Shown piece after piece: positions 28,987-63,978 of a stretch of DNA of 64,000 nt. Position numbers and translations under genes: made by a program. The notes beneath the pieces were generated by a model. The model was not told the origin of the DNA. It did not search any database and worked only from the letters and a program-made list of their open reading frames with translations. Each line of letters opens with the position of its first letter. Within the stretch, counting starts at the first letter, position 1. Source of the DNA: Eledone cirrhosa (taxonomy: Eukaryota); NCBI GenBank assembly GCA_964016885.1, contig OZ024740.1, forward strand, positions 346,394,001 through 346,458,000, given 5' to 3'.

Positions 28987-29276
28987 ATTAAACGTGGAAA
29001 GCTGGGAGAGGGCACTTGCCCTGGTGGTCAGGGTCACTGTGGCTTTTTAATGGGCTTTCTCCCCAAATATTCCTTGGAAGTCTCCCCCTATTGGGAAATT
29101 GTTTCATTGTTCTATTATTACATACTCTGTTACATTTTTTTACACGCAGAAATGTCCATTTGTACCGCCCTGTATTGTTCTGTACTGTCCTTAATGTCTA
29201 CCTTATGTAAACCCTTGTGGTTAATAAAGAAATCATTATTATAATTATTATTATAATTATAATTATTATTATTGTT

Positions 29277-32200
29277 CTTTGAGTCTCAGTCATTGATGTT
29301 AGTTAAATGGAAAGTTTGTTGCAATGAATATCAAGCCACTACCTGCAGCCTCAGATATTCAGGACGTATCGGAGGGTTCTTGCTGTTCCCAGCAAGCAAG
29401 CCTTTTGAAGCGTTCAAAAAAGCGTGAAGGGGCCAATTTTCTTTAACCATTCCTGGAAACTTTTTGAGATAGTACCTAGTGCGCCTATGACAATCGGGAT
29501 CACTTTGACTTCATAGCAGTTCCAAATCCTTTTTACCTCCCAATTTAAGTCCTGGTATCTGTTAATTTTCTCCCTCTCCTTCTCATGCACTCTCGTGTCG
29601 AATGGGCAGGCCACATCCACAATCAGGCACGATCTTTTTTCTTTGTCCAAAACCACCAGGTCAGGTCTATTGTGTTCCAGTTTCTTGTCCGTCTCTATCC
29701 TAAAATCCAACAGCACCTTTACCTGATCGTTTTCTATCCCTGACTCTGGCTTATGCTCATACCACTTCTCAGAATGTGGTAAATTGTTTACTTTGCATAG
29801 GTGCCAGTAGATCACCCTGCCCATCACATCATGTCTCCAGCCCTTATAGTGAGTATGTGCTAGGTGTTTACACTCGGATACAATGTGAGCCATAGTCTCC
29901 TCTCTCGTCTCCACAGATCCTGCACAGTGGGCTAGCCTCCTCCTTGTAAATATGGTGTTTCAACCACTTCGTTTTGAGAGCCTGCTCTTGCGCAGCCATT
30001 AACATTCCTTCTGTAGCCTTTTTAAGGTCTCCTCTTTTCAACAATTTCCATGTCTGTGGATCTCTGAATTCAGTTTTCTCAAAGAAGGTACTATGAAGGG
30101 ATTTTTCCTGAGGCTGCTCTTTCTCCTTGTTGTTATTTCCTCCTTGGACATCCCATTGTCTATTGCCCTCTGCTACAGTAAATTTCTGAACATTGGCTCC
30201 TTACTATCAGTCACATATTTGGGTAGGTTGTTTTTCTCCATCTGAACACAGTCCTCTATGCTGATAAGACCTCTTCCACCTTCAGATCTCCTTAAGTATA
30301 GTATAATAATAGACACAGCTCGGGAATTTACTGCACTTATGGCATTCCTACTGTTCAGATGTGACTTTAATACGCTTCTTACTCTCCGAATGAATTCAGT
30401 TCTTATCAATTCCTTCATTTTTTTGTTCTTGATGTCATCAGCCTCCAGAACACCCAAATACTTGTATCCTTCTTCATTGTCAATTTCCTTTATCATCTCA
30501 CCTGTTGGTACCTGGATTCCGTTGCTTCTGCTCAATTTACCCCCCTTCATCACCAGGACTCCACACTTACTAATACCAAATTGCATACATATATCATTGC
30601 TTAAAATACGGTCGGTGTCAACAAGCACATCCAACTCCTTCTCATTCTTCCCGAAGAGCTTAACTTCGTCCATGAAGAGGAGGTGATTGATGGTAAGCTC
30701 TCCATTTCCCAACTTGTATCCTGCTCAAACTTTTAGCAGTATAATGGTCAGGGGCATCAGGGCAAGGACAAACAACAGAGGGGACAGACTATCTCCCTGG
30801 AAGATACCTCTCTTGATCTTCCCGCCTCCCAAGGAATCTCCAGCTGATGTTAACTCTGTTTCCCAGGACTTCATACTTTTGCCCAACAACTGTCTGATGT
30901 TATCTGCCACCTTGAAGATATCTAGGCTTTTGGTGATCCAAGAATGAGGCACCATGTCAAATGCCTTTTTGTAGTGTATCCATCCCATGGCAAGATCAGT
31001 GTGTCTCCTCTTGCAATTCCCTTTTACCATCTTATCAATAAGTAACTGGTCCTTAGTACCACGGGACTTCTTTCGGCATCCTTTCTGTCCGTCCGGTAAC
31101 AAGTTGTTTGTGTGGAGGTGATGGTAGATTTCCTCAGACATATTGCTTGACAACAGTTTCCACATTACGGACAGACATGTGATAGGTCTATAGTTGGTAA
31201 CATCATTACCCTTGATTCGGTCTTTCATTACCAGAACTGTGGTACCTTTTGTCAACCACTCTGGTACCTCACCTGATATCAAGCAGTCATTGAACATGGT
31301 TGTCAGTTTCGGGTGGAGGGATGTTATAGTTTTAATCCAATACCCCTGCACACCATCTGGGGCTGGTGATTTCCAGTTGGTTACTTTTTGGCCTGCCCCT
31401 TAACAGTTTCAACTGTGATACTCAAATCAGTTTGTTGGTGTGCCTGTTCACCAATCTCCTTCTGTACTGTCTCAATCCACACTGCATGGTCATTATTTTT
31501 AACATCCTTCTCCCATATTCCTCTCCAGAATGTTTTAGTGTGTTCCGCCTCAGGGATCAAGTCGTTGCCTCTTTCTTTCCCTTCAAGCTGTCCAAACAGC
31601 ATCTTCCGGTTGTTGTCAAACATGCGGTTCTGTCTATACTGACTGACTCTGTTCTCGTATCGCCTAATTTTTGCACTCTTTGCTACAATGCGTTGCTTCA
31701 GTTTCTCTATGATAATATTTAGCTTTTTCCTCCTAGTTTTGTACTTTATTTCCAGTCTATTTTTAGTGTTTATGTTTTTTAGTGTCCCATTCAGTAGGGA
31801 CTCAAGCTTTCCAATGTCATTTCTCATTTCCCTGATTTGACCATTCAATCGTTTCTTCCACCAAGGCTCTGATCTTTCTTGTTTGTTGTTTCCTCTCGCT
31901 TTTATACCAAGTAATTTCCTCACCGCATTTGCTTTTGCTTTGAGGATATTGTTGCACTGGTGAAAGCTCCTCGCCTCAAGGTATGGGATGACTTTGTTTA
32001 CCTTAGCTGTTGTTTCTTTTAACTTTTTCCTGTCTACAAATCTCAGGTTCATAGGTTTCCCACTATCATTGTTCAATTCATCTACCACTAAGTTTAGGAT
32101 ATCAACCAAATATTGTCCTAGCCCGTCAGCATTCATCTCCTCAATGGCCGTATCTTTCTTCCAGATATTATTTATTTCAGCATTCAGATCATTGTCTGCT

Positions 32201-34095
32201 CGGATGGTTCCTCCGTTCTTTCAACCTCTTCACCTTCATTTCCCACTGGCTAGTTTGCCTGGCATACTCCACTCTCCATCTCCAAGGTTATCTCTCTGCT
32301 CAGTTCCTCCAGTTCCAGCTCGCTTATCCACCCATTAGTTCTTATTACCCGAGCCTGCCCGGCCAATTTGTGTTCATCTAATTTAAATAGACCAATCTCG
32401 TTCCAGATGTTATGCATCCGTTTCCTATAGCCTTTCTCCTTGGGGTTACTCTTCAGGTAACATTGCATAACAGTTCTATTCAATTATTTCGTCCAGTTGG
32501 TTCTGGTCCCCTTCCTTCTTCTTCTTCCTCCAACACCAGTAGTATTTGGTTGACAGCCAGGTCCCAGCTGCTGAGCCAGGGAGCACCTGCTGGGTAAGAG
32601 TCTGTCACATGAATTCTAGTCTCCACTTCACCGTTATTCGAACTGTTTAGGTTCGACATTTAAAGACTCTTATCGAGGATTGGTGAATGTATGGTTACAT
32701 AACCACCGGTGATTTCATCACTCTCGATGATTTTTTTGTGTGGCACTATCACGCTGTAGACGAACATAAATAAACAAGCAGACAAACAGGCAAAAAAACA
32801 ACCAAAAAAGAATATGCATAAGTTTCATTGTAATGTAATGTTTGAATGTCTGACTTAGTTTTTCCCCTCCCTTCTCTGTCCGTCTGTTTGTTTTTCTTTT
32901 CATTTTTCTTTTCTTTACGTTTTTCGTTGTTGCTGTGCTGCTTTGATTTTGATTTTTGGTCTCTTGATTGTTTGACCGGGTCATCAAATCAGTATATTTA
33001 TATATTTTGATGCCTTCCTCTTTTAGTGGGGACACTACGATGCATGTCTTAGCAGGAGGTAGTGGTAGAGAATAGCGGCGGCAGTGATAATGAGGCAGTG
33101 GTGATGGTGCTGTGCTAGTAGTACTTAGCAGGAGGTAGTGGGAGAGAATAGTGGCGGTAGCGATAATGAGGCAGTGGTAGAGGTGATGTGATCGTAGTAC
33201 TGTAGTGATGGTGTTGAAGTTGAAGTAGAAATAGAAGTTTACGTAACTTGACTAGAGTTTTTAGCGTGGTAGTGGTGGTGAAATTATCTTCTCTGTCCAC
33301 TTAGCCATTTAGCTATTTAGCTATTTAGCCATTTTGCCATTTTCCTCCTTTTCGACTCTAACATTCCTGATCCAAAATTAAATATTAATATTGTCTAGTG
33401 ATACCGCCACCTTCCCCTTTCTTAAGTTAACAGAAGGTAATGAGGGAATAGTGGTGGTAGCAATGAAGGAGTGGTGGCGGCGGTGATGGGATAGTGGTAG
33501 CAATGATGGATGGAGTGGTGGCGGCGGTGACTATAGTGATGGCGTTGTCGTTACTGAGTTTTGTTGAATACACTGTAGTTTGTTTGATCGGTGTATCTAT
33601 GCGGTTTGTCGCGTATGTTTAATATGTGTTGACATATTTCTTAATATTGGAATTAAACATTTTGTGAAAACTTGAGACAACAATAATAGTAATTATTATT
33701 ATTATGCTGGGGTTGGTGGTGGTGGTGGTGAAATTGCCGTTCTCTTGCTGTTGTATTTAGTGTACACAGAGGGGTGATGGGATAGGTGGTGTATATAGTT
33801 TGTAGTGTTGGTGAAATTGCTGTTATTTGGCTGTTCTATATAGTGTAGACAGAGGTTGTTTTCTTCCATTTATAACCATTTTCTTTTTTGAATATAAAAT
33901 GTATAATACAAAATTAAATATTTGAGCGATATAACAGAATATTATGGATCCGAATTTTCTGAGAGTTGAGTCTGGTGCTTTATGTATCATTTGTACTAAG
34001 AATTGTTATTCCACAATTGATTTAAATATGTTAAAAATCAAAAACTTACGGGAGCGATTTCATGACCTTCTATCCACCACGTGCGTCTTCTTCCC
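29277..34095 (-). mobile_element. Dong/R4 family A copy A1, full length
   Basis: Single RT-RLE ORF and a long 5' leader starting GGGAAGAAGACGCACG; bounded by (TAA)n. Confidence 0.95.
29351..32659 (-). pseudogene. Dong A1 ORF (Myb-like N-terminus, RT, CCHC, RLE), disrupted
   Basis: GIFQGDSLSP, LFMDE, RHD, RPDLVVLD..IVDVACP; frameshifts and an internal deletion near 30300. Confidence 0.93.

Positions 34096-34179
<84 letters not shown>
34096..34179. repeat. (TTA)28 spacer between Dong A1 and Dong B
   Basis: Perfect repeat; longest spacer of pure TTA in the array. Confidence 0.97.
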
Positions 34180-34180: not shown

Positions 34181-37100
34181 AGCTGCATTTATCTTTTTTT
34201 ATGTTAATACGAGGTATCAACAAGTCACATCCAGTGACCTCAAGAGACAACAAGGTCCGCCATGTTCAAGAAAGAACATACGTACTCACACATGCATCTT
34301 TAGGTGTTTAGACTTGTGATGTACTTATATTGACAGAATCTTCCTTAGTATATGGGCAGTTCCCATTAGTACTATCTTTTGTATTTCTCCTATACGCGGG
34401 TTTCCTGGGATTTGCGATAAGTAATCATTAGACCCCTTAGGTATCATTCCTAGAGCGCCTACAACCACTGGTATTGTTTCAGTCTTCAATTTCCACATAT
34501 TTCCAATTTCTATCTCCAGGTCCTTATACTTGCTCAATTTTTCAAATGTTTTTATAGATACATTCTTGTCTATTGGAACGGACATATCAATTAGCAGGCA
34601 TTACCTCTTTTTAAAGTCCTTCAATATTATATCAGGTCTATTTGCATCTATTTTACGGTCTGTTTAGATGCTAAAGTTCCACAAGATTGAGATGTGATCT
34701 TTTTCAAGTATGGGAGGTGGTTTATGCTCCCACCAATTGTTTTGATGGGGCAGGTCAAAATGTTTACACATTATCCAATGTATGTATTGTGCAGCTCTGT
34801 CATGCCTGTTTAGGTATTCGGTTGGAGCTATAGGACTGCACATTGAAATTATATGGTCAATGGTCCCTGGTTGTTTTTTACATACACGGCATAATGGGCT
34901 GCATCCATTTTTTATTATGTTTGCTTGGTAATTTTTTGTTGGCAGACACTGATCTTGTGCTGATATAATCAGTCCTTTAGTCTCGGATTTCAGTCCAGAG
35001 GATGCCAACCACTGATGGGTTAAAGTTTTGTCAACATCAGGATTGTTAGCTCGTTCTGGGTATTTTCCATACAGAGGCTTTTCTTGCCATTTCTTAGCCA
35101 GTTTCTGTAGCAGTTCTTTCTTTGCAGTTACTTTTACCTGCTTTGCTTTTTCTGTGTTTTCCATTTCAGCAGTAAATGGGACTTCTGAAATGTGTAGTCC
35201 ATTACTGTATCTTTGTGCATCTTTTGTAATGGAGTATGATCTTTTGATGCTTTCGTATTTCAAAACGAGTTTGATCATCCAATCATGTGATTCCCTTACA
35301 TATGTAGATAATCCAATTGTTGCAGTTTTCAACGCAATGTCTAACTGGATTAACCCACGTCCTCCTTCTTTCCTAGGGAGATATATTCTATCTGTATCTG
35401 CCTTAGGATGATGCATTCTGTGCATGGTTAAGAATTTTCGAATTTTTGTATCGAGCCTACGGATCTCTGTGCTTGACCAGTTGATGGATGACATTGTAAC
35501 TGTAGGTTACTACTGGTATGGCAAACGTGTTTATGGCATCGATCCTATTCCTTACATTCAATTCCGTTGTTAAGATTGCACTTACTCTGCGGTAACATTC
35601 CTTCCTTATCCTTTCCCTCATTGTCAAGTGCTTGATTCCGTCTGCTTCACAAACACCTAGATATTTGTAAGTTTCCTCTTGATCAATTCTCTTATCACAT
35701 TCCCCCGATCAAGATTAATGTCTGAACTTTTCAGCAGCTTTCCTCTGGTGAACGTTGCTTTGGCGCAAACTCCATTTTAATGTCATCACTGAACTGCTCT
35801 ACAGTGGATAATGGCCCTTGCAATTGTTCATCATTTTTTGCAAATAGTTTCAGGTCATCCATGTAGAACAAGTGATTAATGGTTTTGTCGTAGACTTTAT
35901 ATCCATGTTTTGTTTCATTGAGCATTTTACTTAATGGTATAAGTGCGATGCAGAATAAAAGCGGTGATAAAGAGTCACCCTGAAAAATTCCACAATTAAT
36001 ATTAACATCTCCAGCTTCCAGGGATTTTGTTTCACTATTCCAAAGGAGTGTCGTTTTCCATGTCTTCATACTGAATGACAAAAACCTCCTGACAACGGGA
36101 GATATTTTGAAAATCTTTAAACATTTTTCAATCCAACTGTGTGGCAAACTATCGAATGCTTTTTTATAATCTATCCAAGCAATTGATAGATTTTTCTGTC
36201 TATTATGACAATCTTCCAGTATCATTTTGTTAATCAAAAGCTGATCCTTACAGCCATATGAGCCTCGTTTACACCCTTTCTGTTCAATGGGAAATAGGTC
36301 ATTTGTTATCAGGTGGTCATATGTATATTCAGTTAGGTCTGATGTTAAAATTTTATACATTGTGGTCAAGCAAGTTATCGGTCTGTAATTTTTGGGATTG
36401 TTTGTCTCATCATTCTTCGGAAGCAGGAATGTAATGCCGTTAACTAGCCATGATGGTATCTTTTCTGGCTCCTTAACTCTTTCATTGTAAAGTTGGGCTA
36501 ACAGCTCATTAGACTCTGGGAAGGCATTTATCCAAAAATTTTGTATTTTGTCTTTTCCTAGGGATTTCCATTTGCTGGTTTTTCTTAGGGCCAAACGCAA
36601 CTGTTCAACTGTTATATTTTCCCATATTTGTTCCTCAAGGTGACCTGTATCTTTCATTTGTCTGTCTGTCATTGGGGCATGTATATTATGAACTTTTTCT
36701 CCGGCCCAGATCCTTTCCCAGAATTCTTGCACTTCCTCCTTGGGTGGTATTGATTTAGCAGTTATTGTTGACTTACCAATTTTTCTGTAGAAGTTTCTTT
36801 GATTGTTTTTGAACATATTATTGTCCTTATACAATCTAGATCGTTTTTCAAAGCGCCTTATACGAACAGCTTTGGCCGACACTTTTTGCTTGATTATTTC
36901 TATCAGCATGTCTATGTCACTTATTGATTTTATACTGTACTTTCTTTTCAATTTTCTAATTTTAGTTTGTTTAACATGTTCACCTACTTTATAGTTTGTT
37001 AACATTTCTATGTCAGATCGAAGAAGGTTTATTTGGCGATTGATGTGCTCTTGCCAAGTAGATTTCTTGTGGGAATTCCTTTGTTTTTTCATCTTCACTC

Positions 37101-39050
37101 CACATAAGTGAGTGGTGATTTTAGCCGATGCATAATAGAGATGATTTAAATCAGTAATGTTTAGGTTGTTTGTGATGATAATGTTTTTGAGAATTATGTT
37201 AGTCTCGTGTATTATCTTTTGGTTCTGTTTGGAGTTCTGGATCTTAGGGAGGGTGTCTCGTTCCCCCATGTCAGATTCTTTCATTTTCATCCATTCGATC
37301 ATAATTTCATCCTTCAAGTTGGCAAGTTCATTCTCATTCATTAGATTATCATTTACGATCTCATTGTTTTCATTTTGAGTTTTATCTTGAGCATGCACTC
37401 CCTCCCCTTTTTCGATCCTTTCTTTAATTTGTTCTGTTGTCAGTGATTCCGCCCCAACCCTGGGATTCGAAGTGTTACAATTAACCTCATTTTCACTGAC
37501 ACATGTTTCATTTTCCCTTCGCTGACTTTGTGCTAATAGCTTGATCTGATCAATTTCTATATCAGTTAGTAACTTTTTTTTTACAATATTTCTTCGTATT
37601 TTGGCTAGTTTGTTACTCTCAATATAGCCTCTGTTTAAGCGATGTTTCTTTTTCCAGTTGATATATGTCTGTTCTGTATTCCATGTATTTGATGGGTAGT
37701 ACATGGCAGTGTAGAAAGCCTCAAGGACTTCTTTATTATCTTCGCTTGATAATTTTTCTCTCTTTTATTTTGGATTTTTTGGTGGTGAGCATGGAGGGCC
37801 AACAGTAGGAGTATTCCGGTTATGGGAGGTCTCCAGCTCCGAAGTGATGGGAAGGTTTGAACCATTAGCTGATTTTTCGACCCCAGTCTGGTTCCTCTCT
37901 GAGGGACGCGGCTCTTTTTGACTCGGGTGACGTCCGATCCGGTATGAGATTTTATCATTAGACATTTACTTTATTTTGTCTCGTTTTATCCTTGTCGGCC
38001 AAGGGGTAATCATTTCGTGTTACCACTTCTAGGACGAGTGTCAACCAAGACTAGAGGGGTCGTCCTCCCCTAGAGACACGGCTATTCCCCGCCGGCCGCT
38101 ATCCCGGTATTTCTTGGTCACGTGGTTTTCTTTTTTGTTGTTTTTTTAAATTGTTATTATCATGAGTGGTTCCTTAATGTGAGCATTGCGTGGCTTAAGA
38201 ATGAAATTATTAATAATATAATATACTTTTTGCAGAAGTTGCCTGTTATTGTTGTTGGCTATGTCGGTGGTGGTGCTGGGGCTTTTTCTATTGTTGGTGG
38301 GGAAGGGGGGAGGCAGCAGTGCCATTGTGGTTGACGTTTGGCCGGTGGCCGGGTCACTAAGTCAATCTATTTATATATTTTGCTAGCCTCTCTCTTGTCT
38401 AGTGATAGCGCCACCTTCCCCTTTCTTAAGTTAACAGAAGGTAATGGGGGAATAGTGGTGGGAATAGTGGTGGCGGCGGTGACTATAGTGATGGCGTTGT
38501 TGTTACTGAGTTTTGTTGAATAGACTGTAGTTTTGTTTGATCTGTGTATCTATGCGTTTGTCGCGTATGTTTAATATATGTGTTGACATTATTCCTATAA
38601 TATTGGAATTAAACATTTTGTGAAAACTTGAGACAATAATAATAGTAATTATTATTATAATGCTGGGATTGGTGGTGGTGGTGGTGAAATTGCCGTTATC
38701 TGGCTGTTGTAGTAAGTGTACATAGAGGGGAGATGGGATAGGTGGTGTATCTAGTTTGTGGTGTTGGTGAAATTGCTGTTATTTGGCTGTTCTATATAGT
38801 GTAGAGAGAGGGGGCTTTCTTCCATTTATAACCATTTTTTTTTTTTATATAAAATGTATAATACAAAATTAAATATTTGAGCGATATAACAGGATATTAT
38901 GGATCCGAATTTTCTGAGACTTGAGTCTGGTGCTTTACGTATCATTTGTACTAAGAATTTTTATTCCACAATTGATTTAAATATGTTAAAAATCAAAAAC
39001 TTACGGGAGCGATTTCATGACCTTCTATCCACCACGTGCGTCTTCTTCCC
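34180..39050 (-). mobile_element. Dong/R4 family B, full length
   Basis: ORF is divergent from family A but has the same 5' terminus; bounded by (TAA)n. Confidence 0.95.
34325..37965 (-). pseudogene. Dong B ORF (RT-RLE), disrupted
   Basis: 657-aa fragment with GIFQGDSLSP and FYMDD; CRVC..HIISMC, RHD, C-terminal GTAHILRKILSI. Confidence 0.93.
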
Positions 39051-39088
39051 GTATTATTATTATTATTATTATTATTATTGTTATTACA

Positions 39089-41711
39089 CCTTGAGTCTCA
39101 GTCATTGATGTTAGTTAACTGGAAAGTTTGTTGGAATGAATATCAAGCCACTACCTGCAGCCTCAGATATTCAGGACGTATCGGAGGGTTCTTGCTGTTC
39201 CCAGCAAGCATGCCTTTTGAAGCGTTCCAAAAAAAAGGGGCCGATTTTCTTAAACCATCCCTGGAAACTTTTGGAGATAGTCCCCAGTGCGCCTATGACA
39301 ATCGGGATCACTTTGACTTCATGGCAGTGCCAAATCCTTTTTACCTCCCACTTTAAGTCCTGGTATCGGTTAATTTTCTCCCTCTCCTTCTCTTGCACTC
39401 TCGTATCGAATGGGCAGGCCACATCCACAATCAGGCACGATCTTTTGTCTTTGTCCAAAACCACCAGGTCAGGTCTATTGTGTTCCAGTTTCTTGTCTGT
39501 CTGTATCCTAAAATCCCACAGCACCTTCACCTGATCGTTCTCTATCACCGCTTCTGGCTTATGCTCATACCATTTCTCAGAATGTGGTAAATTGTTTACT
39601 TTGCACAGGTGCCAGTGGATCACCCTGCCCATCACATCATGTCTCCAGCCCTTATAGTGGATCTGGGCTAGTTGTTTACACTCGGATACAATGTGAGCCA
39701 CAGTCTCCTCTCTCTCTCCACAGATCCTGCACAGTGGGCTAGACTCATCCTTGTAAATATGGTGTTTCAACCACTTCGTTTTGAGGGCCAGCTCCTGCAC
39801 AGTCATTAACATTCCTTCTGTAGCCTTTTTAAGGTCTCCTCTTTTCAACCAGTTCCATGTCTGTGGATCTCTAAATTCAGTTTTCTCAAAGAAGGTACTA
39901 TGAAGGGATTTTTCCTGAAGGCTGCTCTTTCTCCTTGATGTTATTTCCTCCTTGGACATCCCCTGGCCTATTGTCCTCTCATTCAGTACAGTTCTGAGCA
40001 TTGGCTCCTTACTATCAGTCACGTATTTGTGTAGGTTGTTTTTCTCCACCTGAACACAGTCCTCTATGCTGATAAGACCTCCTCCACCCTCAGATCTCCT
40101 TAAGTAGAGTCTATCGACATCACTCCTCTTGTGGAACATGTTGTAGATAGTCAATAGCTTCCTAGTCTTCCTATCCATTTCTTTTTGTACAGCAACATTC
40201 CATCTCAGAATTCCCGCACTGTACCTAATAATAGACACAGCTCGGGAATTTACTGCGCTTATGGCATTTCTGCTGTTCAGATGTGACTTCAATACGCTCC
40301 TAACTCTCCGAATGTATTCAGTTCTTAACAATTCCTTCATTTTTTTGTTCTTTATGCCATCAGCCTCCAGAACGCCCAAATACTTGTATCCTTTCTCAGA
40401 GTCAATTTCCTTTATCATCTCACCTGTTGGTATCTGGATTCCGTTACTTCTGCTCAACCTACCCGTCCTCATCACAATGACTCCACACTTACTAATACCA
40501 AATTGCATACATATTTCACTGCTGAAAATACGGACAGTGTCAACAAGCACATCCAACTCCTTCTCACTCTTCCCGAAGAGCTTAGGATCGTCCATGAAGA
40601 GGAGGTGATTGATGGTAAGCCCTCCCTTTCAAAACCTGTATCCTGCTATCACTTTTCGCAGTACACTGGTCAGGGGCATCAAGGCAAGGACAAACAACAG
40701 AGGGCACAGGCTATCTCCCTGGAAGATACCTCTCTTGATCTTCACGCTTCCCAAGGATTCTCCAGTTGATGTCAACTCTGTTTCCCAGGACCTCATACTT
40801 TTGCCCAACAACTGTCTGATGTTATCTGCCACCTTGAAGATCTCCAGACTTTTGGTGATCCAAGAATGAGGCACCATGTCAAATGCCTTTCTGTAGTCTA
40901 TCCATCCCATGGCAAGATCAGTGTGTCTCTTCTTGCAATTCCCCATTACCATCTTATCAATAAGTAACTGGTCATGTGTACCACGTGACTTCTTTCGGCA
41001 TCCTTTCTGTTCGTCCGGTAACAAGTTGTTTGTGTGGAGGTGATGGTAGATTTCCTCAGACACAATGCTCGTCAACAGTTTACACAGTACGGACAGACAT
41101 GTGATAGGTCTATAGTTGGTAACATCATTACCCTTGATTCGGTTTTTCATTATCAGAACTGTGGTACATTTTGTCAACCACTCTGGTACCACACCTGACA
41201 TCAAGCAGTCATTGAACATGGTTGTCAGTTTCGTGTGGAGGGATGTTATATTTTTATCCAATACCCCTGCACACCATCTGGGCCTGGTGATTTCCAGTTG
41301 GTTACTTTTTTGGCCTGCCCCTTAAGAGTTTCAACTGTGATACTCAAATCAGTTTGTTGGTGTGCCTGTTCACCAATCTCCTTTTGTACTGTCTCAATCC
41401 ACACTGCCTGGTCATTATGTCTAAAATCCTGCTCCCATATAGCTCTCCAGAATGTTTTAGTTTGTGCCGCCTCAGGGATCAAGTCGTTGCCTCTTTCTTT
41501 CCCTTCAAGCTGTCCAAACAGCATCTTCTGGTTGTTGTCGAACATGCGGTTCTGTTTATACTGACTGACTCTGTTCTCGTATCGCCTGAGCTTTGCACTC
41601 TTTGCTGCAATGCGTTGCTTCAATTCCTCTATGATAATATTTAGCTCTTTCCTCCTAGTTTTGTACTTTATTTCCAGTCTATTTTTAGTGTCTATGTTTT
41701 TTAGTGTCCCA

Positions 41712-41713
<2 letters not shown>
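39089..41713 (-). mobile_element. Dong/R4 family A copy A2, 5'-truncated
   Basis: RT-RLE fragments 41246-41623, 40629-41261 and 39171-40595; ends mid-ORF at an ATT that runs into (TTA)n. Confidence 0.95.
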
Positions 41714-41971: not shown

Positions 41972-44049
41972 ATGGCTACGAAAAAGAATGTTCATAGGTC
42001 ACTCCCACTCATTCCGTCTTCTTCTTCCTCAATCGTCACTACAGCAGAGAGAAGATTGTCTCTCTCCCTTCCTTCTTTAAATGTGTCTCTCTCCCTCCCT
42101 TCTCTTTCGCAAGTGACAACAGAAATAAAAATCTCGTGCAAAGCGTGCAAGATTTCTCCACGACGACGACGACGACGACGAAACAGGTGTGCGGGAAATA
42201 CGAATACCCATTTCATTAGTCTGACGTCAGGAATAATAGCAGTAGCCGCCGTAATAACAACAGCAACAGTGACTATGAAAACAACAGTAGCAGCCGCAAC
42301 AGCATCAGCAGCAGCATAAACAACAACAGCATTAGCAGCAGCAACAACAATAACAACCACAGCAACAGCGGCGGCAGCAGTAGTCGTAGTACCTGCAGCA
42401 ACAACAAAAAGTAACAGCAGCTCTGACGACAACAACAACAACAACAGCAGCAAAGAAAAACCAATCTCATTTGCAGGTATCACAAAGAACCTGGAAACGA
42501 TCCTAATAACAAATGAGGAATTAGAGGAAGCGAAGAAGATGGTGACAAAAACTGGACACCGAGCAATCTGCAAGGCAGCGGAAACATTATTCGAAACCCA
42601 ACAGCACTGTACGGTCACGTACCGTACAGTAAGTACAAAATCCCTTAGAGTTGAAAGAGCCACAGAGGCTCAAATACAAAAAGCCTTGGGGGTCTGTGTG
42701 GCAGCGGAAAACGCACATCGCCCGAGGCAAGAATATGTCAGCGTAGACGTACTTGGTGACCCTAAGGAGCGAGGAAATTGTGTTGGTGCCCTCCTACTGC
42801 GGGCAAAAAATTGTGAGGGTCAAACTGATCCACGTCCGCCCCGGGATGGCCCCTTCTTGGCTGGCCGCGTCTGTCCTCGTCGGAATCGAGGACAAAACAA
42901 CTGTACTGCAAGTACAGAGAAAAGTAAGAGAAGATTGGGTCGGCACCTCCATTGAGATGTTAATCCAAACCAACCAGGAGTTCATCGAAGCTATCTCGGA
43001 TGTGATAGACTTCGATAACGGCACTCAATTGCCCATAAGTGTTGAGGGCAAACGCCCGAAATGCTTTCGCTGTGGATCGAAGACTCACCTCAGGGCCTTC
43101 TGCAACGAGAAGGTCCTGAGAAAGGAGAAAAACCCCCTCCTTCCGAAACCGGCTCCACGGCTACCAGCAACAAGACAAGCGGCAACCAGGAACGATAGGT
43201 CCGTGGCACCCATACCCACGCCACGGAAATCAAAAACAGCAGCAGCAGTGGAAGTATTAACAGCAACAACAGCAATACCAAATGCAGCTGCAACAGAGAC
43301 TCCAGTGCAAACATTACCAACAACAACAAGTGAAAGAGTGGAGCTGGTACCCCTCCCCGACCTCACAGAAACAGACATGGAGTGTGAGGTGGGAGAGGGA
43401 TGGAAAAAAGGACGTAAGAAGGCACAAGCGCAGAAACAGCGCCTCGTCGCCTTCGAAAAGGGAGGAAAGAAATGAAAAAAGGGTAAAGGCTACTGCAAAG
43501 AGTCTCACAGCAGCAACTCCACCAACACCATCACCACCCACACTAGCACCACCATCACCACCGGCGACAACCCCACTGCCAACAACAACAACACCTTCAA
43601 CAGCACCACCACAAGCACCCACATCGAAAACACAAAAACAAAACACACACACCCAGCAACAACGACAAGAAAATAGCAGAACCACACCCCACCCCCAGAA
43701 AAAACAAATGCACAGCAATAAATACACACAACAAGAAACTAATGACTTACATAATTGAATACACAGACATTTCACAACACGACTACATAATACAGGCACC
43801 AATCAAAACGCCAACTAACATAAGTCTGGTAAAAATCGCACAGAAACAATACACAAACATTAAAACGAAATTCCCCAACGCAGTTGGTGATTTCAGAGAC
43901 CTTTGAGGGACTCTAAATCGAAGAGTATATTCGGACATACTCATAGAAGAGCCGACAACCAGCCGAAGGGACGATTCAACGGTCCCTTCAGCAGACGATC
44001 AAGTGAAGAGGGATGGAAAAACATCCCTCCTCTACGAAAAGTACGGTAA
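41972..44049 (+). pseudogene. Tx1-2 ORF1 (CCHC knuckle), disrupted
   Basis: RPKCFRCGSKTHLRAFC; low-complexity Ser/Asn and Thr/Pro tracts. Confidence 0.87.
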
Positions 44050-44084
44050 GTGGTTTTTCCCATCTTTTCCACTCTGTTTTAAAC

Positions 44085-47000
44085 ATGACCTCACTCAGAA
44101 TAGGCAGCATAAATGCGCGTGGCTTGGGGTCGTCATGGAAGCAGGGTCACCTGCTCAACGACCTCAGGTCACTAAACATAGATATAGTGGCCATCAGCGA
44201 GACCAGAAGCTCCGAAGCACGGGCCTTCGCACCGATCTTCGACCGCTACGATGTGTACGCATCTCCCAGCCGTCCTGGATCGGGGGGAGGAGTTGCTGTG
44301 CTTTTTCGGAGAGGTTTTGATCTCGCCATACGGGCCATCTTCCTGGACCCAGAGGGTAAGTTGGTGGTGCTGGACGTGACCAGCGCAGACGGGCAAGCTT
44401 TCAGGCTAGTGGCCGTCTATGCCCCGACAGGAGCAGGGCGGCCTGATTTCTTCCGGCGTCTGGAGACCTATCTTGGAACGTCCTGCTCTTTAGTGTTAGT
44501 GGGCGACTGGAACGGGATCTTAGATGCACGCTGGGACTGTGTGGGTTTAGCGGATAGGGGTGGAGGGTGCAAGAGCCTCACCAACCTTCTCAGGCGTTTT
44601 GAATTGTCTTACAGGTACCGATTGGATTTCCCGAATGTGCCAATGTGGATTTGGACAAATCGCATAGGGTCATCCAGATCATATCTAGATAGAGTATTTT
44701 GTAGGGAAATAGATAGGTCTAGCATAGGCTGTCTAGAATTCAAGATAGTCAGCTACACGGACCACAAATTCGTGATCTGTGTGCTTGACTTAGATAGGAT
44801 TCATAGACAAGGACCCGGCTACTGGAAGCTAAACGCGCTAACCAGCGCGCAAGGCCTAAAAAGACCGGATTAGCGAACTAGTTAAGCGGGCGTTGACGGG
44901 GGCCATCGACAACAACAAGTGGTGGTTTGCTCTGAAAAGAGCAATTAGAATAGATTCCATTAGGTTTAGTAAGACTTTAGCAATAGAGAAAAATAGAGCA
45001 GAGGGAGAATTAGTTAGAAAATTAGATGAGGCGCTTAGCAAAGGCATCGCGACCGACGTACTTGCGGCGAAATTGGCCCTTGACCAATTCTTCAATGCAA
45101 AGCACGAAGGCTGCGTTGTCAGAGCTAGGGTGCGTGCTCTCAGACACGAGGGGACGAAAGCCGTTCAATGGGCCCGAGTGGCGGAGGCGCGTCGTGGCAA
45201 CAAAGCCACGATCCGGTCTTTGGTGGACCACGACGGGCGCATGCTACTCGATCCCGGGCAAATGTGTGAAGCTTTTCAGCGACACTTCGCTCAACTGTTC
45301 GGGGGCAGTGGCGGCCGGATCGAGGGATGGACTTTAGTGTCTACCTCGACGGACTGCCGCGGCTTTCGGCCACTGAGGCGGAGTGTTGCGAAAAGCCGAT
45401 AACAACCGCTGAAGTACGGGATGCAATGACTAGTTGCACAAGGGGTAAATCGCCTGGTTTGGATGGTCTGCCGTATGAACTTTACGTACAAATGCCAAAC
45501 TTGTTCGGAGGCCTCTTGGCGGACGTCTACTGCAACTGGCAACAGAACGGGAGAATTCCCAGCTCTGTGAGCCGAGGAGCGGTGGCGCTGCTGAGAAAGG
45601 ATCCGAACAAGGGGGATAACATAGATAATTTTAGGCCCATAACTCTGCTAAACACAGAGTTCAAGATTTTGGCCAAGGTGCTAGCAAAGAGGTTGGCGCT
45701 TGTCGTTGGTGGTCTGGTGGGAGAGGCACAGACATGCGCCATTCCCGACAGATCCATCCACGACAACCTCCACCTCATGCGATACATCGTAGAGAGGGTA
45801 GCTAGGGAACCTGGCACGGGTGGGTCTTTGATCAACTTAGATCAGTCGAAACCTTCGATAGGGTCGACCATCGTTACCTAACAGCAGTCCTGAGGGCGGC
45901 TGGCTTTGGGCCCGTCTTCAGAGGCTGGATCGCTGCCATGCACAGCGACATCTGCTCTGTAGTGAGAGTGAACGGTCATCTTTCGGAACCGTTCAACATC
46001 ATGCGCTCGGTCCGCCAAGGATGTCTCCTCTCGTCCCTATTGTACGTATTGACTCTCGAGCCATTAATGCACAAACTGGAGACGTTGAGGGGGGTCCCGC
46101 GCGAACTAGGATGCGGAAGATCCGTGTCAGCATATGCCGACGATGTCACCGTAGTGGTGTCGAACGCCAAACAGATCGAGGCGATCGGCACTACACTAAG
46201 AGAATACGAAGCGGTGACAGGAGCAATGATCAACCAGGAAAAGTCAGTGGGCCTGCAGCTCGGCACCTGGAGAGGCAGGTCCATGCCGTCCAACAGCGTC
46301 GTCGGGCGCTGGACGGACGGACCGGTTAAATTGCTAGGGGTCTGGTTCGGTCCAGACCTCCAGACGGACAAAAACTGGGACGAGGTGACGAGCAGGGTGG
46401 CTTCTCTCACCCAGAAATGGGCCGAGAGGAAGCTATCCCTGAAAGGTCGAGCGGAGGTGGCGAATGCGTACATCGCATCCGTCATCTACTACCGCCTGAC
46501 CGTCGTACCTTGTCCTAAGCCCCGCCTGACTGCGCTGGAGCGTTTGCTCTTTCGCTTCTTGTGGAAGGGACGCGCTCCGATGGTCAGGCGGTCCATCTGC
46601 TGTCAACACCCGCTACGTGGAGGGCTGGGAATGCCGTGGCTGATGATGCGCAGACACGCGCTCAGGCTACGACATCTCCACCTCTTCCTCGACGGTGATC
46701 AGGTGTGGTCGCCGTTTGCAAGACACGTTTTTCCCCAGCTCGTCTCCTTGACGGAGCTGCAGTCCTGGGTCAAGCGAAGACCGAGAGGGAGCGCTTGGAG
46801 ACTGGAATGTCTTCAGGCGCTCACAGCCCTCGACCAATCGGGCAATGTGATCGGTGGAAACTCCACCTTGGCGTTCTATAGGGGATTAGTGGAGGGGAAG
46901 AGCGACGACGTACTTGGAGAAACTCTAGGCGTCGACAAAAATCAACTAGCCAATCTCTTCGGAAGGACTTTCGGGCCGGGGCCTATGGACAACTTCCAGA

Positions 47001-47500
47001 AATCCCTGGCCTGGCAGTGCTACCGAGGAGCTTTGCCAGTTCGGGATAAACTCTACAGGCATGGAGGTGCCGTCAGCCGGGCATGTCCGAGATGCGCGCA
47101 GGGCGACGAAACCGTCCTGCACGCACTCGTCCAGTGTCCGAGCATTGCTGACTTGTGGGTTTATGTCGAACACCTGCTGTCACGTGTAGGACGGATCCAG
47201 CTATTAGCTGAGTCCATCGTGAGGATTGTCCCGCCCCCTTCCTTTAGCCTGGAAGGGCAGCCATTTTTTATCTGTCTGGTGGCCATGGCGAAAGAGATAG
47301 TATGGTGGACACGTTTGAAAGGGCTGAAGACGAGCACTTACCTCTTCGGTGATGCCCTGATTAACTTTTTCAAATTTCATTTGAAAAGGAAAATCAGGGT
47401 AGAGAGGGAAGTGCTCTCTTCCCAGCATTTTGTTGAAAGATGGGTGAGAGAAGCAAGTATGGCCCGAATGAATGGGCCTTCTCTGAGTATGTGTCTGTAA
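44085..47500 (+). pseudogene. Tx1-2 ORF2 (APE-RT-zinc finger), frameshifted
   Basis: GDWN, TDH, YADD, CPRC..HALVQC; about three frameshifts. Confidence 0.95.
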
Positions 47501-47782
47501 ATTAAAGGTGGAAAACTGGGAGAGGGCACTTGCCCTGGTGGTCAGGGCCACTGTGGTCTTTTAATGGGCTTTCTCCACAAATGTCCCTTGGAAGTCTGCC
47601 CCCTATTGGGGAATCTTTCTTTGTTATTTTATTTCAACCTCTGTTTTTTTACACGCAGAAATGCCCATTTGTACCGTCCTGTATTGTCCTGTACTGTCCT
47701 TAATGTCTACTTTATGTGAACCCTTGTGGTTAATAAAGAAAACATTATTATTATTATTATTATGATTATTATTATTATTATT

Positions 47783-57053: not shown

Positions 57054-57339
57054 ATTAAAGGTGGAAAACTGGGAGAGGGCACTTGCCTTGGTGGTCAGTG
57101 TCACTGTGGCCTTTTACTGGGCTTTCTCCACAAATGTCCCTCCGAAGTCTCCCCCCTATTGGGGAATTTTTCATTCTTATTTTCATTGTTATTTTTGTTA
57201 CATCCTCTGTTTTTGTTTTTTACACGCAAAATATGCCCATTTGTACCGTCCTGCATTGTCCTGCACTGTCCTTAACGTCTACTTTATGTAAACCCTTGTG
57301 GTTAATAAAGAAATCATTATTATTATTATTGTTGTTATT

Positions 57340-60300
57340 CCTTGAATCTCAGTCATTGATGTTGGTTAACTGGTAAGTCCGTTGGAATGAATATCAAGCC
57401 ACTACCTGCAGCCTCAGATATTCAGGACGTATCGGAGGGTTCGTGCTGTTCCAAGCAAGCATGCCTTTTGAAGCGTTCCAAAAAGCGTGAAGGGGCCGAT
57501 TTTCTTTAACCATCCCTGGAAACTTTTGGAGATAGTCCCCAGTGCGCCTATGACAATCGGGATCACTTTGACTTCATGGCAGTTCCAAATCCTTTTCACC
57601 TCCCACTTTACGTCCTGGTATCGGTTAATTTTCTCCCTCTCCTTCTCTCTTGCACTCTCGTGTCGAACGGGCAGGCCACATCCACAATCAGACACGATAT
57701 TTTTTCTTTGTCCACAACCACCAGGTCAGGTCTATTGTGTTCCAGTTTTTTGTCCGTCTGTATCCTAAAATCCCACAGCACCTTCACCTGACTGTTCTCC
57801 ATCACCGCCTCCGGCCTATGCTCATACCATTTCTCAGAATGTGGTAAATTGTTTACTTTGCACAGGTGCCAGTGGATCACCCTGCCCATCACATCGTGTC
57901 TCCAGCCCTTATAGTGGGTCTGGGCTAGGTGTTTACACTCGGACACAATGTGAGCCACAGTCTCCTCTCTCTCTCCACAGATCCTGCACAGTGGGCTAGC
58001 CTCCTCCTTGTAAATATGGTGCTTCAACCACTTCGTTTTGAGGGCCTGCTCCTGCGCAGCCATTATCATTCCTTCTGTAGCCTTTTTGAGGTCTCCTCTT
58101 CTCAACCAGTTCCATGTCTGTGGATCTCTAAATTCAGTTTTCTCAAAGAAGGTACTATGAAGGGATTTTCCCTTAAGGCTGCTCTTCCTCCTTGATGTTA
58201 TTTCCTCCTTGGACATCCCCTGGCCTACTGTCCCCTCCTTCAGTACAGTTTTGAGCATTGGCTCCTTACTATAGGTCACGTATTTGTATAGGTTGTTTTT
58301 CTCCATCTGAACACAGTCCTCTATGCTGATAAGACCTCTTCCACCCTCAGATCTCCTTAGGTAGAGTCTATCGACATCACTCCTCTTGTGGAACATGTTG
58401 TAGATAGATAGTCAATAGCTTCCTAGTTTTCCTATCCATTTCTCTTTGTTCAGCAACATTCCATCTCAGAATTCCCGCACTGTACCTAATAATAGACACA
58501 GCTCGGGAATTTACTGCGCTTATGGCATTTCTGCTGTTCAGATGTGACTTCAATACGCTCCTTACTCTCCGAATGTATTCAGTTCTTAACAATTCCTTCA
58601 TTTTTTTGTTCTTTATGCCATCAGCCTCTAGAACGCCCAAATACTTGTATCCTTTCTCAGAGTCAATTTCCTTTATCATCTCACCTGTTGGTATCTGGAT
58701 CCCGCTACTTCTGCTCAACCTACCCCTCCTCATCACAATGACTCCACATTTACCAATACCAAACTGCATACATATATCACTGCTGAAAATACGGACAGTG
58801 TCAACAAGCACATCCAACTCCTTCTCACTTTTCCCGAAGAGCTTAAGATCGTCCATGAAGAGGAGGTGATTGATGGTAAGCTCTCCCCTTCCCAACTTGT
58901 ATCCTGCTCTCACTTTTCGCAGCATAATGGTCAAGGGCATTAGAGCAAGGACAAACAACAGAGAGGACAGGCTATCTCCCTGGAAGATACCTCTCTTGAT
59001 CTTCACGCTTCCCAAGGATACTCCAGTTGATGTCAACTCTGTCTCCCAGGACCCCATACTCCTGCCCAGCAACTGTCTGATGTTATCTGCCACCCTGAAG
59101 ATCTCCAGGCTTCTGGTGATCCAAGAATGAGGCACCATGTCAAATGCCTTTCTGTAGTCTATCCATCCCATGGCAAGATCAGTGTGTCTCCTCCTGCAAT
59201 TCCCCATTACCATCTTATCAATAAGTAACTGGTCCTTTGTACCACGTGACTTCTTTCGGCATCCTTTCTGTTCGTCCGGTAACAAGTTGTTTGTGTGGAG
59301 GTGATGGTAGATTTCCTCAGACACAATGCTCGTCAACAGTTTCCACATTACGGACAGACATGTGATAGGTCTATAGTTGGTAACATCATTACCCTTGATT
59401 CGGTCTTTCATTATCAGAACTGTGGTACATTTTGTCAACCACTCTGGCACCTCACCCGACACCAAGCAGTCATTGAACATGGCCGTCAGCTTCGGGTGGA
59501 GGGATGTTAAATGTTTAATCCTATACCCCTGCACACCATCTGGGCCTGGTGATTTCCAGTTGGTTAGCTTTTTGGACTGCCCCTTAAGAGTTTCAACTGT
59601 GATACTCAAATCAGTTTGTTGTTGTGCCTGCTCACCGATCTCCCTCTGTACTGTCTCAATCCACCCTGCCTGGGCATTATGTCTAACATCCTGCTCCCAT
59701 ATTCCTCTCCAGAATGTTTTAGTTTGTTCCGCCCCAGGGATCAAGTCGTTGCCTCTTTCTTTCCCCTCAAGCTGTCCAAACAGCATCTTCTGGTTGTTGT
59801 CGAACATGCGGTTCTGTTTATACTGACTGACTCTGTTCTCGTATCGCCTGATTTTTGCACTCTTTGCTACAATGCGTTGCTTCAATTCCTCTATGATAAT
59901 ACTTAGCTTTTTCCTCCTAGTTTTGTATTTTATTTCCAGTCTATTTTTAGTGTCTATGTTTTTTAGTGTCCCATTCAGTAGTGACTCAAGCTTTCCTATG
60001 TCATTTCTCATTTCCCCGATTTGCCCACTCAGTCGTTTCTTCCACCACGGCTCTGCTCTTTCTTGTCTGTTGTTTCCTCTCGCTTTTATACCAAGTAGTT
60101 TCCTCACCGTATTTGCTGTTGCTTTGAGGATATTGTTGCACTGGTGAAGGCTCCTCGCCTCAAGGTATGGGATGACTTTGTTTACCTTAGCTGTTGTTTC
60201 TTTTAACTTTTTCCTGTCTACAAATCTTAGGTTCATAGGTCTCCCACTATCATTGTTCAATTCATCTACCACTAAATTTAGGATGTCAACCGAATCTTGT

Positions 60301-61894
60301 CCTAGCCCGTCAGCATTCATCTCCTCAGTGGCCGTATCTCTGTTCCAGGTATTATTTATCTCAGTATTCAGATCATTGTCTGCTTCGGGTGGTTCCTCCG
60401 TTCTCAGGACCTCTTCACCTTCATTTCCCACTGGCTCGCTTGTCTGGCATACTACACCCGCCATCTCCAAGCCATTCTCTCTGCTCAGTTCCTCCAGTTC
60501 CAGCTCGCTTATCCACCCATTAGTTCTTATTACCCGAGCCTGCCCGGCCAATTTTTGTTCATCTAATTTAAATAAACCAATCTCGTTCCAGATGTTATGC
60601 ATCCGTCTCCTGTAGCCCCTCTCCTTGGGGTTACTTTTCAGGTAGCATTGCATAACAGTTCTATTCAATTCTTTCGTCCAGTTGGTTCTGGCCTCTTTCC
60701 TTCTTCTTCTTCCTCCAACATCAGCAGTATTTGGTTGACAGTCAGGTTCCTGCTGCTGAGCCAGGGGGCACCTGTTGGGTGAGAGTCTGTCACATGACGT
60801 TCTAGTCTCCATTTCACCGTTATTCGAACTGTTTATGTTCGATATTTAAACACTCTTATCGAGGATTGGCGAATGTATGGTTACATAGCCATCTGTGGAT
60901 CCGACATCCCACTTGGCCCTTGTGTGGCATTATCACCACGCTGTATACGAACACACATAAACAAACAAACACACAGGCAGAAAGGGCCCCAAAAATGAAT
61001 AAGCATAAGTTTCATTGTAATGTAGTGTTCGAATGTCTGACTTAGTTTTTGTTTTTTAAGTTTTAGTTTTTCCCCCCTCTTCTCTGTCCGTCCGCCTGCT
61101 TCTCTCTTCATTCTTATTTTCTTTACGTTTTTGGGGTTTCTTTTTTTGTTTTTGTTTTTCTCTGTTTGTTTTTCTCGTTTTTGCTGTTGTTGCTGTGTTG
61201 CTTTGGTTTTGTTGTTTGTTTTTTCTTTTTTCTTTTGAGTCTATCTATATATTTTGATGCCTTCCTCATTGTTAGTAGTAGGAATTCTATAATGTGGAAG
61301 TAGCAGCCAGCAGGGAGAAGTGGGAGACTGGCGGCGGTAGCGATACTGAGACAGTGGTGGTGGTGATGTCGATACCGAGGCAGTGGTGGCGGTGATGTGA
61401 CCGTATTACTGTAGTGATGGTGCTGTAGCGGTGGCAGCAGTGAAGGAGTGAAGGGGTGGTGGCGGCGGTGATGGGATAGTGGTGGTAATGATGGCCGTAG
61501 TGAGCGGTGGTGGTGAAGGTGAAAATGCCGTTATCTGGCTGTTGTGTTTAGTGTACACAGATGATGGGGTGGGTGGTGTATCTAGTTTCTGGTGTTGGTG
61601 AGTTTGGCTGTCCTATATAGTGTAGACAGAGGAGATGAGGGGGGGGGGGGTTCTTCTTCCATTTATAGCCATTTTCTTTTTTGGATATACAGTGTACAAT
61701 ACAAAGTTGAATATTTGAATATTTGAGCCTTATAACAATATATTTTGGGTCCGAATTTTTTGGGGCTCAAGCCGGGTGCTTTACGTAGCATTTGTACTAA
61801 GAGTTTTTATTTCACAAATGATTTAAATATGTTAAAAATTCAAAACTTACGGGAGCGATTTCATGACCTCCGTCACCTCGTGCGTCTTCTTCCC
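57340..61894 (-). mobile_element. Dong/R4 family A copy A3, full length, best preserved
   Basis: 5' terminus GGGAAGAAGACGCACG at 61894; bounded by (TAA)n. Confidence 0.96.
57414..60812 (-). pseudogene. Dong A3 ORF: Myb-like, RT (LFMDD), CCHC, RLE (RPD..D..K); two small frameshifts
   Basis: 811 aa + 262 aa + 93 aa fragments. Frameshifts are an ATAG duplication near 58405 and an extra CT near 57648, both in short repeats. Confidence 0.95.
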
Positions 61895-61895
61895 T

Positions 61896-61930
<35 letters not shown>

Positions 61931-61999
61931 GTTGTTGTTGTTGTTGTTGTTATTTTTGTTGTTGTTATCATCATCATCAACATCTTGGTTGTTGAGTCT

Positions 62000-63978
62000 T
62001 TCTAGACGTGTATACACATCGCTACGTCTGCTTTGTTTGTTTTAATTTGTTTGGAGTGTGATTTTAATAAAGTATATTGTAACAAACTGTTAATAAGCCA
62101 CGATACATTGCCCTCTGAAAAGATGAGCCTGTAGTATTTGGGCTTTTGGCACAAATATTTGAACTTTATGGGTTTTTTTCCGCCCACAGGCGTTAAAAAA
62201 GTGGCAGAGATACGCCCATCAATTTTGGGCCAGCTGTTACGTGACAATAACATCATCCCCAGCACCACAACCAATATAACAACTGTTACAACTACCTCCA
62301 CTATAGACAGCAAGACCACTGTCGACAACAACAACGACAGTGGCAACAACAGTAACAACAACATGCACAACAGTAGCAACAACTACTAGAGCAACAATGA
62401 CGGTAAAAACGACAGCAAGACAACAAGAATAATGACTAGAGCAACAACAGAAGCAGCAACAGCAACAATAGCAGCAACAACAATAACCGCAGCAGCAGAA
62501 ACAACGGCACAATCAACAACATCCTCAACGACAACAACCACAACAACAACAACACAATCGCCGACGACAACAGGAACAGTAACACAAGCACCAACAGCAA
62601 CAACAATAACAGCATTAGAAACAACTGTAAATTCAACATCAGAAACAACAAACACAACAAAATCCTATTCACCACTATGGCTGCGAAAACCACGGAATTA
62701 TTCCATATGGATTTGAGTAGGAGGGAAGAATGTTTGGTTCAGACAACCACATTTTTAAACGTGGACAATGTACAACAACAGCAATTTCCACACCGACAAC
62801 ATCAGCAGTAGCTACGACAAGACTAAGCCAACACATCAGCAACGGCAGGCACTGAAAAACCAACACAAATATCAAAACCTGCAAGAAATTTAAAGCCACC
62901 CAGTGGGTCTCACTATTTTAATCTCATTCTCCTTTTATTTAAAACACGCACACACGCAGTCCCTCACACACTGACGACCTCCATTTTAATGAAAGGATTC
63001 GTCTACAGAAACCTCTTCTTCTCGCAACGAGGAAAAGGTAAATTCCAAAAGGCCAGTAACACCCCACCCCCGCAAAAAAAAACAGGAAAAGAAACACAAA
63101 ACTATGCAGCAGCATTTCAACACACTAACCAAGGTAAACTCTAAAAAAAACGGAAAAAATCCAACATGTAAAAAAAAGACACTTTCACAACAACAGCAAC
63201 ACCACCAATAAGACACATTAACACCACTACCACCAGCAGCACGACAAAATAAACGAAAACACGGTTAAATACAGCAACCAGCAACTAGTTAGAAGGGCTA
63301 AAAAATAACTGCTGGCCCTCATAGCATGATGCAAAGAGAGAGAGAGTGAGAGGGGGGGGGGGGGGGGATTTGACACTGGAAACCTTAAATTGCTACAGAA
63401 CATCTCGAATTTGCGAATGTCACCAGGGTCGTATAGAAACATTGGGAAGAGCTATCCGCACGGCATGGTGACCCTAAATGTAAGATCCACCATCAAGCTT
63501 TTAAAGGGGCTCCCAAGGGAAACACCACCAACTATAGAGGTTGACCACGTGATCGCCAACAGTTATTTTTCACATGGGGTTATTCGTATCGCTTAGTCGG
63601 CCTGGCATCTTAGGTGCGGTGGCAGTGCTGCTTAGGATTTTTCTAGACCAGGATGGTAAGTTTTTGGTCCTCGACGGGGGTAACAGAAATGGTGTTGTCT
63701 TTATACTGGTGGCCGTCTGCGCTCCGATTGGGCTGAAGAGCTCGATTTCTTTAGGTGTATAGAAGCTTTGTTTACGAACGTATCACCGTTTCCTGTTAGT
63801 GGGGAACTGAAACAGCATCTTGAACGCACATTGTGATTGCGTGGGAGTGGCCGATAGAAACAGGGAGAGGGTGCAAAATCCTCAAGAACTCGATCAGTCA
63901 TTTCCAACTATCTGAGTTGTACCGACTAGATTTCAAGAATGCGCCAATGTGGACATTTATTATCTGCATGGTCGACCT
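62000..63978 (+). mobile_element. Decayed Tx1-like LINE copy 4 (5' part)
   Basis: Thr-rich ORF1-like region, then SRPGILGAVAVLLRIFLDQDGKFLVLD..LVAVCAP, homologous to the APE domain of copies 1-3; cut off by (GAA)n. Confidence 0.78.

Follow-up and report, generated by a model that had tools for sequence, protein, structure and literature searches.

A 64,000-nucleotide (nt) stretch of the genome of Eledone cirrhosa (GenBank assembly GCA_964016885.1, contig OZ024740.1, positions 346,394,001 to 346,458,000 of the forward strand; hereafter the window) contains A1, A2, and A3, three copies of a Dong/R4-like retrotransposon lacking long terminal repeats (LTRs). A preliminary description had noted an excess of A-to-G changes on the sense strand of A3 and took this copy, or its source element, to have been reverse-transcribed from an ADAR-edited RNA. 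We found that A3 is an unremarkable copy within a large young family and not an edited copy, and that the excess is a real mutation signature, specific to this family, acting at the level of its source lineage. A3 owes its G letters to a source lineage in which A>G and T>C changes built up stepwise, likely through copying mistakes of the reverse transcriptase (RT) that the element itself encodes, a reading to which we assign a probability of roughly 0.55. All the changes are given below on the sense strand of the element.

In a three-way alignment of A1, A2, and A3 (2,536 columns), 41 of the 81 changes specific to A3 were A>G and eight were T>C (p=0.002 after correction for base composition), which confirms the excess first noted. 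The five differences from A2 at positions 57788-57820, the six at positions 59041-59115, and the peptides CRRRH, ITRSLEIFRV, ERGYRRRM, and HRPE in the translations were also found to be present. These changes do not, however, belong to A3. Siblings 98-99% identical to A3 were recovered by a genome search, and of the 39 A>G sites that were scored, 34 have G in most of 29 dispersed siblings, so that G is the consensus of the subfamily there; three of the remaining sites carry a minor shared state and two are private. The family is large (5,741 genome matches to one 22-mer) and forms a ladder of subfamilies from S0 to S4, in which A1, A2, and A3 represent nested subfamilies whose median divergences are 2.2%, 1.3%, and 0.56%, respectively. 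Two older copies are therefore no outgroup for a young subfamily.

The order of the changes was read from a FastTree phylogeny of 158 copies, each with at least 2,300 aligned bases; shorter pieces, 14 duplicates, and nine chimeric or duplicated copies were left out beforehand. The tree was used instead of allele-count-one singletons, which were saturated for the common changes over 267 pieces. It consists of a single ladder running from old to very young copies, and on this ladder the two clusters of changes, previously regarded as single events, come apart (Table 1). The polarity of one site in the first cluster (57809) is reversed, the change being G>A in A2, and all but one of the sites in the second map to trunk branches that differ from each other. 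Intermediate copies (L044 and L054, for example) hold scattered subsets of the S3 changes, and this scatter does not suggest gene-conversion mosaics. On A3's own branch, G>A accounts for six of the 20 changes and A>G for five. The reverse transcription of A3, or of one immediate source copy, from a single heavily edited RNA would explain the three-way asymmetry; it would also suit the five private A>G changes of A3, which all have a 5' A and are accompanied by no private T>C, but with p=0.16. With G as the consensus state and the clusters built up step by step, such an RNA does not appear to have been the template for A3 or for any one source copy, and we regard this origin as highly improbable. 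What stands of the initial proposal is the weaker idea that A>G changes were taken up during the RNA phase of a source lineage. No hypermutated copy was present among the 102 pieces obtained from 80 stretches around the first listed pattern matches on one contig, which were not picked for their likeness to A3. The contigs of three sequencing runs mostly carried the G states of A3 and were uninformative about editing.

The changes accumulated on the source branches of the tree (349 events) include 142 A>G, 58 T>C, 58 G>A, and 26 C>T, and along the lineage the number of A residues decreases from 1,268 to 1,191 while that of G residues increases from 915 to 991. At synonymous sites, the changes per site amount to 72/289 for A>G, 41/268 for T>C, 25/292 for G>A, and 20/283 for C>T. 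The decay following insertion shows a different spectrum: singletons in the S3 group are strand-symmetric (1.54 A>G and 1.56 T>C per 1000 sites, 2.99 G>A and 2.96 C>T), and the decay as a whole is nearly symmetric and rich in G>A and C>T. Compared with the host clock, the synonymous S2-to-S3 changes, although few in number, are about 30-fold in excess in the case of both A>G (15 vs. 0.49 expected) and T>C (8 vs. 0.27), and those of G>A and C>T just 4- and 2-fold, respectively. The proximal 300 nt of the 5' untranslated region (UTR) drifted in the same direction (A>G 23, T>C 11, G>A 6, and C>T 3, counted by hand), with equal per-base rates for A>G (23/119) and T>C (11/57); the distal UTR columns (before column 2535) were dropped as misaligned. 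Because the 5' UTR drifts and the excess goes beyond host decay, the input would arise in the retrotransposition cycle and not from codon selection alone.

Young copies already carry part of this load. A mild A>G excess occurs at the young tips (107 vs. 46 T>C, p=0.046), and in the 36 youngest copies, 30 of which were chosen for their likeness to one young copy, 20 of the 93 singletons are A>G, as compared with 277 of 2,490 in the old tips (p=0.004), giving about 0.27 extra changes per copy. When a load added at each insertion was sought from Poisson intercepts, those of G>A and C>T were positive too, and the test was discarded as uninformative. As a separate observation, private G>A changes (24) outnumber C>T changes (7) on the sense strand of the youngest copies, in small numbers.

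Selection, or GC-biased gene conversion among the thousands of copies, might also drive A and T toward G and C via preferred codons or the loss of UpA or A runs. It would raise both A>G and T>C, as observed here; the per-codon rates track common codon preferences (TTA 8/11, CAA 9/14, GGA 1/29, GCA 0/16), and chimeric copies do exist. Weak-to-strong transversions, however, are not raised on the source branches (A>C 8 and T>G 10 vs. C>A 13 and G>T 7), the drift extends into the non-coding 5' UTR, and the young copies show both the excess and its neighbor context before any selection. In addition, a Tx1-type long interspersed nuclear element (LINE) that is equally abundant (4,794 pattern matches) lacks the effect. 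An explanation of this kind therefore seems improbable.

The spectra of two other LINE families of this genome differ from that of Dong. On the source branches of the Tx1-type LINE, which is interleaved with Dong in the window (97 copies, two lineages), 20 A>G, 19 T>C, 39 G>A, and 35 C>T changes were counted (p=4e-11 for the difference from Dong), and the young copies among these 97 showed no A>G load, although the Tx1 trunk may simply have had fewer rounds of retrotransposition. In a second family of the restriction-like endonuclease (RLE) type, RLE family B (44 copies; two copies were dropped from the analysis), the source branches carry 11 A>G, 22 T>C, 6 G>A, and 5 C>T (p=1e-4). As Dong differs from both families, a process of the host that affects the RNA of every LINE in the same way is unlikely to be responsible.

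Misincorporation by the RT over many rounds of retrotransposition is the likely source of the lineage changes. New full-length copies would keep turning into sources, so that the errors made in each round would pile up on the trunk of the tree; dC placed opposite rA would result in A>G and dG placed opposite rU in T>C, and the neighbor bias would come from primer-template slippage. Primer slippage is expected to favor sites where the 3' neighbor is the same as the new base and to disfavor those where the 5' neighbor is. The 3' neighbor was indeed identical to the new base more often than expected for A>G (54 observed, 37.7 expected) and T>C (16 and 9.9), and the 5' neighbor less often (20 and 42.4 for A>G, 7 and 13.1 for T>C), with p about 0.03 in both T>C comparisons. 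ADAR editing of the template RNA cannot produce T>C on the sense strand. Private A>G changes were not clustered within copies (27 pairs within 30 nt vs. 24.5 expected). Published data on an R2 RT agree with the above picture: in vitro, this enzyme makes 1.17e-4 substitutions per base, 47% of them at thymine, and cytosine is the base most often misincorporated (PMC11331410). Reading these errors as those of the nascent complementary DNA (cDNA), a convention taken from PMC6009661, they would correspond to sense A>G changes at about 0.2 per 3.55-kb copy, and the R2 spectrum would thus fit the Dong drift in both direction and size. T>C is raised about equally over the host clock, two other LINE families have no A>G excess, and RT error, which the preliminary description did not consider, fits the data at least as well as editing at the lineage level.

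Several points weigh against this reading. At synonymous sites A>G exceeds T>C 1.6-fold (p=0.014), and the A>G changes are not the second-strand mirror image of the T>C changes (z=3.4 and 2.8). The ranking of the triplets (TAG > AAG > AAC > TAC ... > GAT, CAT) and the synonymous 5' pattern follow the U>A>C>G order of ADAR (PMC11276115). Neighbor data for any LINE RT were not found in the literature, so that the role of slippage is hypothetical, and the T>C changes of RLE family B do not show the slippage pattern (3' C in 3 of 22). The human L1 RT has a similar spectrum in vitro (PMC11331410), yet the L1-clade Tx1 family is free of the load. Lastly, the basal support of the ladder is weak and the polarity in its oldest part depends on the root.

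Low-level, site-selective ADAR editing in the germ line might have supplied a good part of the A>G load, with inosines entering singly or in pairs, leaving the T>C changes to RT errors, and we tentatively keep this process in view. ADAR may also have been no more than a minor contributor beside the RT. The rates of A>G per triplet on the source branches range from 12/44 for TAG and 26/117 for AAG to 2/79 for GAT and 0/48 for CAT, and the 5' neighbors of the synonymous changes (observed/expected: T 21/10.2, A 39/26.2, C 8/14.9, G 4/20.7) are ranked as described for human ADARs (PMC11276115). The ADAR-like depletion of 5' G, looked for in line with the preliminary description, was strong in the source lineage at synonymous sites but absent at first codon positions (8 observed, 7.2 expected). 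Among the 68 unselected private A>G changes of the young copies, 5' T (19 vs. 9.9 expected, p=0.003) and 3' G (31 vs. 18.8, p=0.001) are enriched, a context absent from the older tips, whereas 5' G is not significantly depleted (18 vs. 22.1, p=0.18). The rejection of the second-strand mirror image likewise agrees with editing. Once matched, the flanks of the A>G sites on the source branches show slightly more pairing (p=0.0025 and 0.047), although not in the unmatched comparison (p=0.13, with ancestral bases); a test on the mid-lineage sequence (p=1e-4) was confounded by the derived G. ADAR genes are present in this coleoid host, one ADAR exon being 94% identical to Octopus vulgaris ADAR2. One old copy, L379 (G000:C5:86562700-86566700), has three A>G changes in 22 nt, two of them in a TAG context, and possibly carries a small edited patch; it was the one genome-wide match to a search pattern in which two A>G changes were imposed, and elsewhere it shows ordinary decay with no hypermutation (G>A 38, A>G 26).

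The absence of an A>G excess in Tx1 and RLE family B and of any A>G/T>C asymmetry in the 5' UTR speaks against editing, as does the complementary T>C rise, which is also about 30-fold over the host clock and leaves A>G only 1.6-fold higher at synonymous sites. Private A>G changes are unclustered, and the same-branch clustering seen on the trunk is shared by other types of change and hence not specific to A>G. In 371 pieces (826 kb), there was no 100-nt window with at least five new A>G changes and hence no hyper-edited Dong copy; no long inverted repeat or long hairpin was found in A3. Invertebrate hyper-editing prefers a 3' A (PMC5625713), yet 3' A is depleted at the Dong source sites; strongly edited coleoid sites lean toward 3' G or T (PMC7703385). 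That everyday low-level editing has been a steady mutagen on the active Dong lineage, accounting for a large part of the approximately 77 A residues lost and of the 76 G residues gained, seems rather unlikely. If it has, edits were reverse-transcribed round after round, including dozens of amino acid changes in a live RT and endonuclease, and RNA editing would steer the evolution of a still-active element in addition to killing single copies.

As in the spectra of LINE RTs determined in vitro (PMC11331410), transitions dominate in Dong; the leading error of the R2 RT, thymine to cytosine in the cDNA, read as sense A>G, occurs at a rate matching the per-copy A>G excess observed here. That study deals with another element in vitro and, in the sections available, gives no neighbor context, whereas our data concern genomic lineages in which three families of one genome differ. 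APOBEC-edited LTR retroelements also undergo strand-specific, context-biased transitions during the retrotransposition cycle (PMC4866542, PMC2873906), but these are G>A changes densely clustered in, and private to, individual copies, whereas the A>G and T>C changes of Dong are sparse and spread along a source lineage. Like the editing of repeat-derived RNA by coleoid ADARs (PMC9068888, PMC5625713, PMC7703385), the Dong drift involves A>G on the transcribed strand, with 5' G depleted at synonymous sites; unlike in that editing, the changes are not clustered on single molecules, no long double-stranded RNA was found, T>C rises too, the 3' preference is for G and not A, and the process is known here from DNA alone. 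No paper on A>G drift in LINE source lineages was found in a literature search, the cover of which did not extend to most subscription journals. The retrotransposition cycle appears to leave a measurable, family-specific signature in a living germ line, with A>G in one RLE family, T>C in another, and a spectrum that follows host decay in an L1-clade family. An input long assumed to exist, whether it consists of RT errors or of RNA edits that were copied into DNA, becomes countable from the genome sequence alone, and the dating of transposable elements and of their subfamilies by the mutation rate of the host can be badly wrong on source branches.

A3 has a single open reading frame (ORF) with an RT domain and no N-terminal APE domain, RVT_1 being the only Pfam match. 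The family ORF is a frame of 1,141 codons, which as projected is uninterrupted in 32 of the 36 youngest copies; that of A3, initially described as nearly intact, is frameshifted by two private insertions, one of 4 nt around 58408 and one of 2 nt around 57650. Based on an intact sibling, the motifs which we take to be the CCHC knuckle, RHD, and PD..D are located at amino acids 952, 981, and 1038. Insertion into (TAA)n is found at both junctions of A3 and at the 5' junctions of its siblings, and the element's 5' end lies at about 61898, beyond the limit of 60900 first proposed, its 3' end being at 57340. The best matches of the ORF among solved structures are R2 proteins (E 3e-26), followed by L1 ORF2p (E 3e-14); no named Dong protein occurs among the 120 homologs listed. 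The Dong/R4 label fits the motifs, the (TAA)n insertion, and the ranking of R2 over L1. The same single ORF with RT, C-terminal CCHC, RHD, and PD..D, and (TAA)n insertion characterize the Dong/R4 clade, in which Dong of B. mori and its link with TAA (PMC3774820) and a Dong consensus in O. bimaculoides (PMC9115989) have been reported. The present family, tentatively placed by these features and by the R2-versus-L1 ranking, is distinguished by its size and its very young copies. These copies and their uninterrupted frames indicate that it is probably still active. No 5' ribozyme resembling that of hepatitis delta virus was detected in an Rfam scan of positions 60800-62000, which gave just two chance-level matches.

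Table 1. Coordinates of the Dong copies and related features in the window.
Feature	Position	Strand	Basis or remark
A3, full-length non-LTR retrotransposon, RLE type (Dong/R4-like), young subfamily S3	57340..61898	-	98.5-99% identity to 29 dispersed copies; (TAA)n at both ends
(TAA)n run at the A3 3' junction, also the tail of an oppositely oriented Tx1-type LINE	57313..57339	-	sequence, self-alignment
(TAA)n run at the A3 5' junction	61899..61930	-	sequence
A3 ORF, 5' part with RT domain (amino acids 487-738), stopping past the A3-specific 4-nt insertion	58377..60845	-	ORF list, Pfam, sibling alignment
A3 ORF, 3' part with putative CCHC knuckle, RHD, and PD..D restriction-like endonuclease motifs; a second frameshift is caused by the 2-nt insertion near 57650	57608..58411	-	
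A3 5' UTR	60846..61898	-	proximal 300 nt with lineage drift as in the ORF
First cluster of the preliminary description: two trunk changes, one on a sub-branch, one private, one G>A in A2	57788..57820	-	tree
Second cluster: five trunk changes on five separate branches, one private	59041..59115	-	tree
A2, 5'-truncated copy, older subfamily S2	39062..41713	-	alignment, subfamily assignment
A1 (aligned part), copy of S1, a subfamily older than S2	29240..32924	-	alignment, subfamily assignment

Some other features of these families were recorded. Members of a very young Dong subfamily (L299-L328) carry about 2.6 private changes per copy. Five chimeric copies (L079, L083, L084, L086, and L087) combine an old 5' part with a young 3' part, which suggests template switching or recombination between subfamilies. 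The window repeats at 33391-34177 and 38395-39086 match the A3 5' UTR region at 61506-61977 and are therefore further Dong 5' segments. Dong is often inserted tail-to-tail in the (TAA)n tail of a Tx1-type LINE (at 29240-29290 and 57313-57339 in the window, and in L009, L015, L020, L054, L059, and others). The two junctions of this kind in the window involve different Dong subfamilies and are independent insertions; segmental duplication of a Tx1 plus Dong unit was rejected because A1, A2, and A3 fall into three different subfamilies. RLE family B is present in the window at 34600-37800 on the minus strand and gives 2,723 pattern matches; its asymmetry, with T>C ahead of A>G, is opposite to that of Dong. 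The Tx1-type family, represented at 44000-47760 on the plus strand, consists with its relatives of two coexisting lineages, both of which include very young copies, some of them arranged in tandem at a spacing of about 6 kb.

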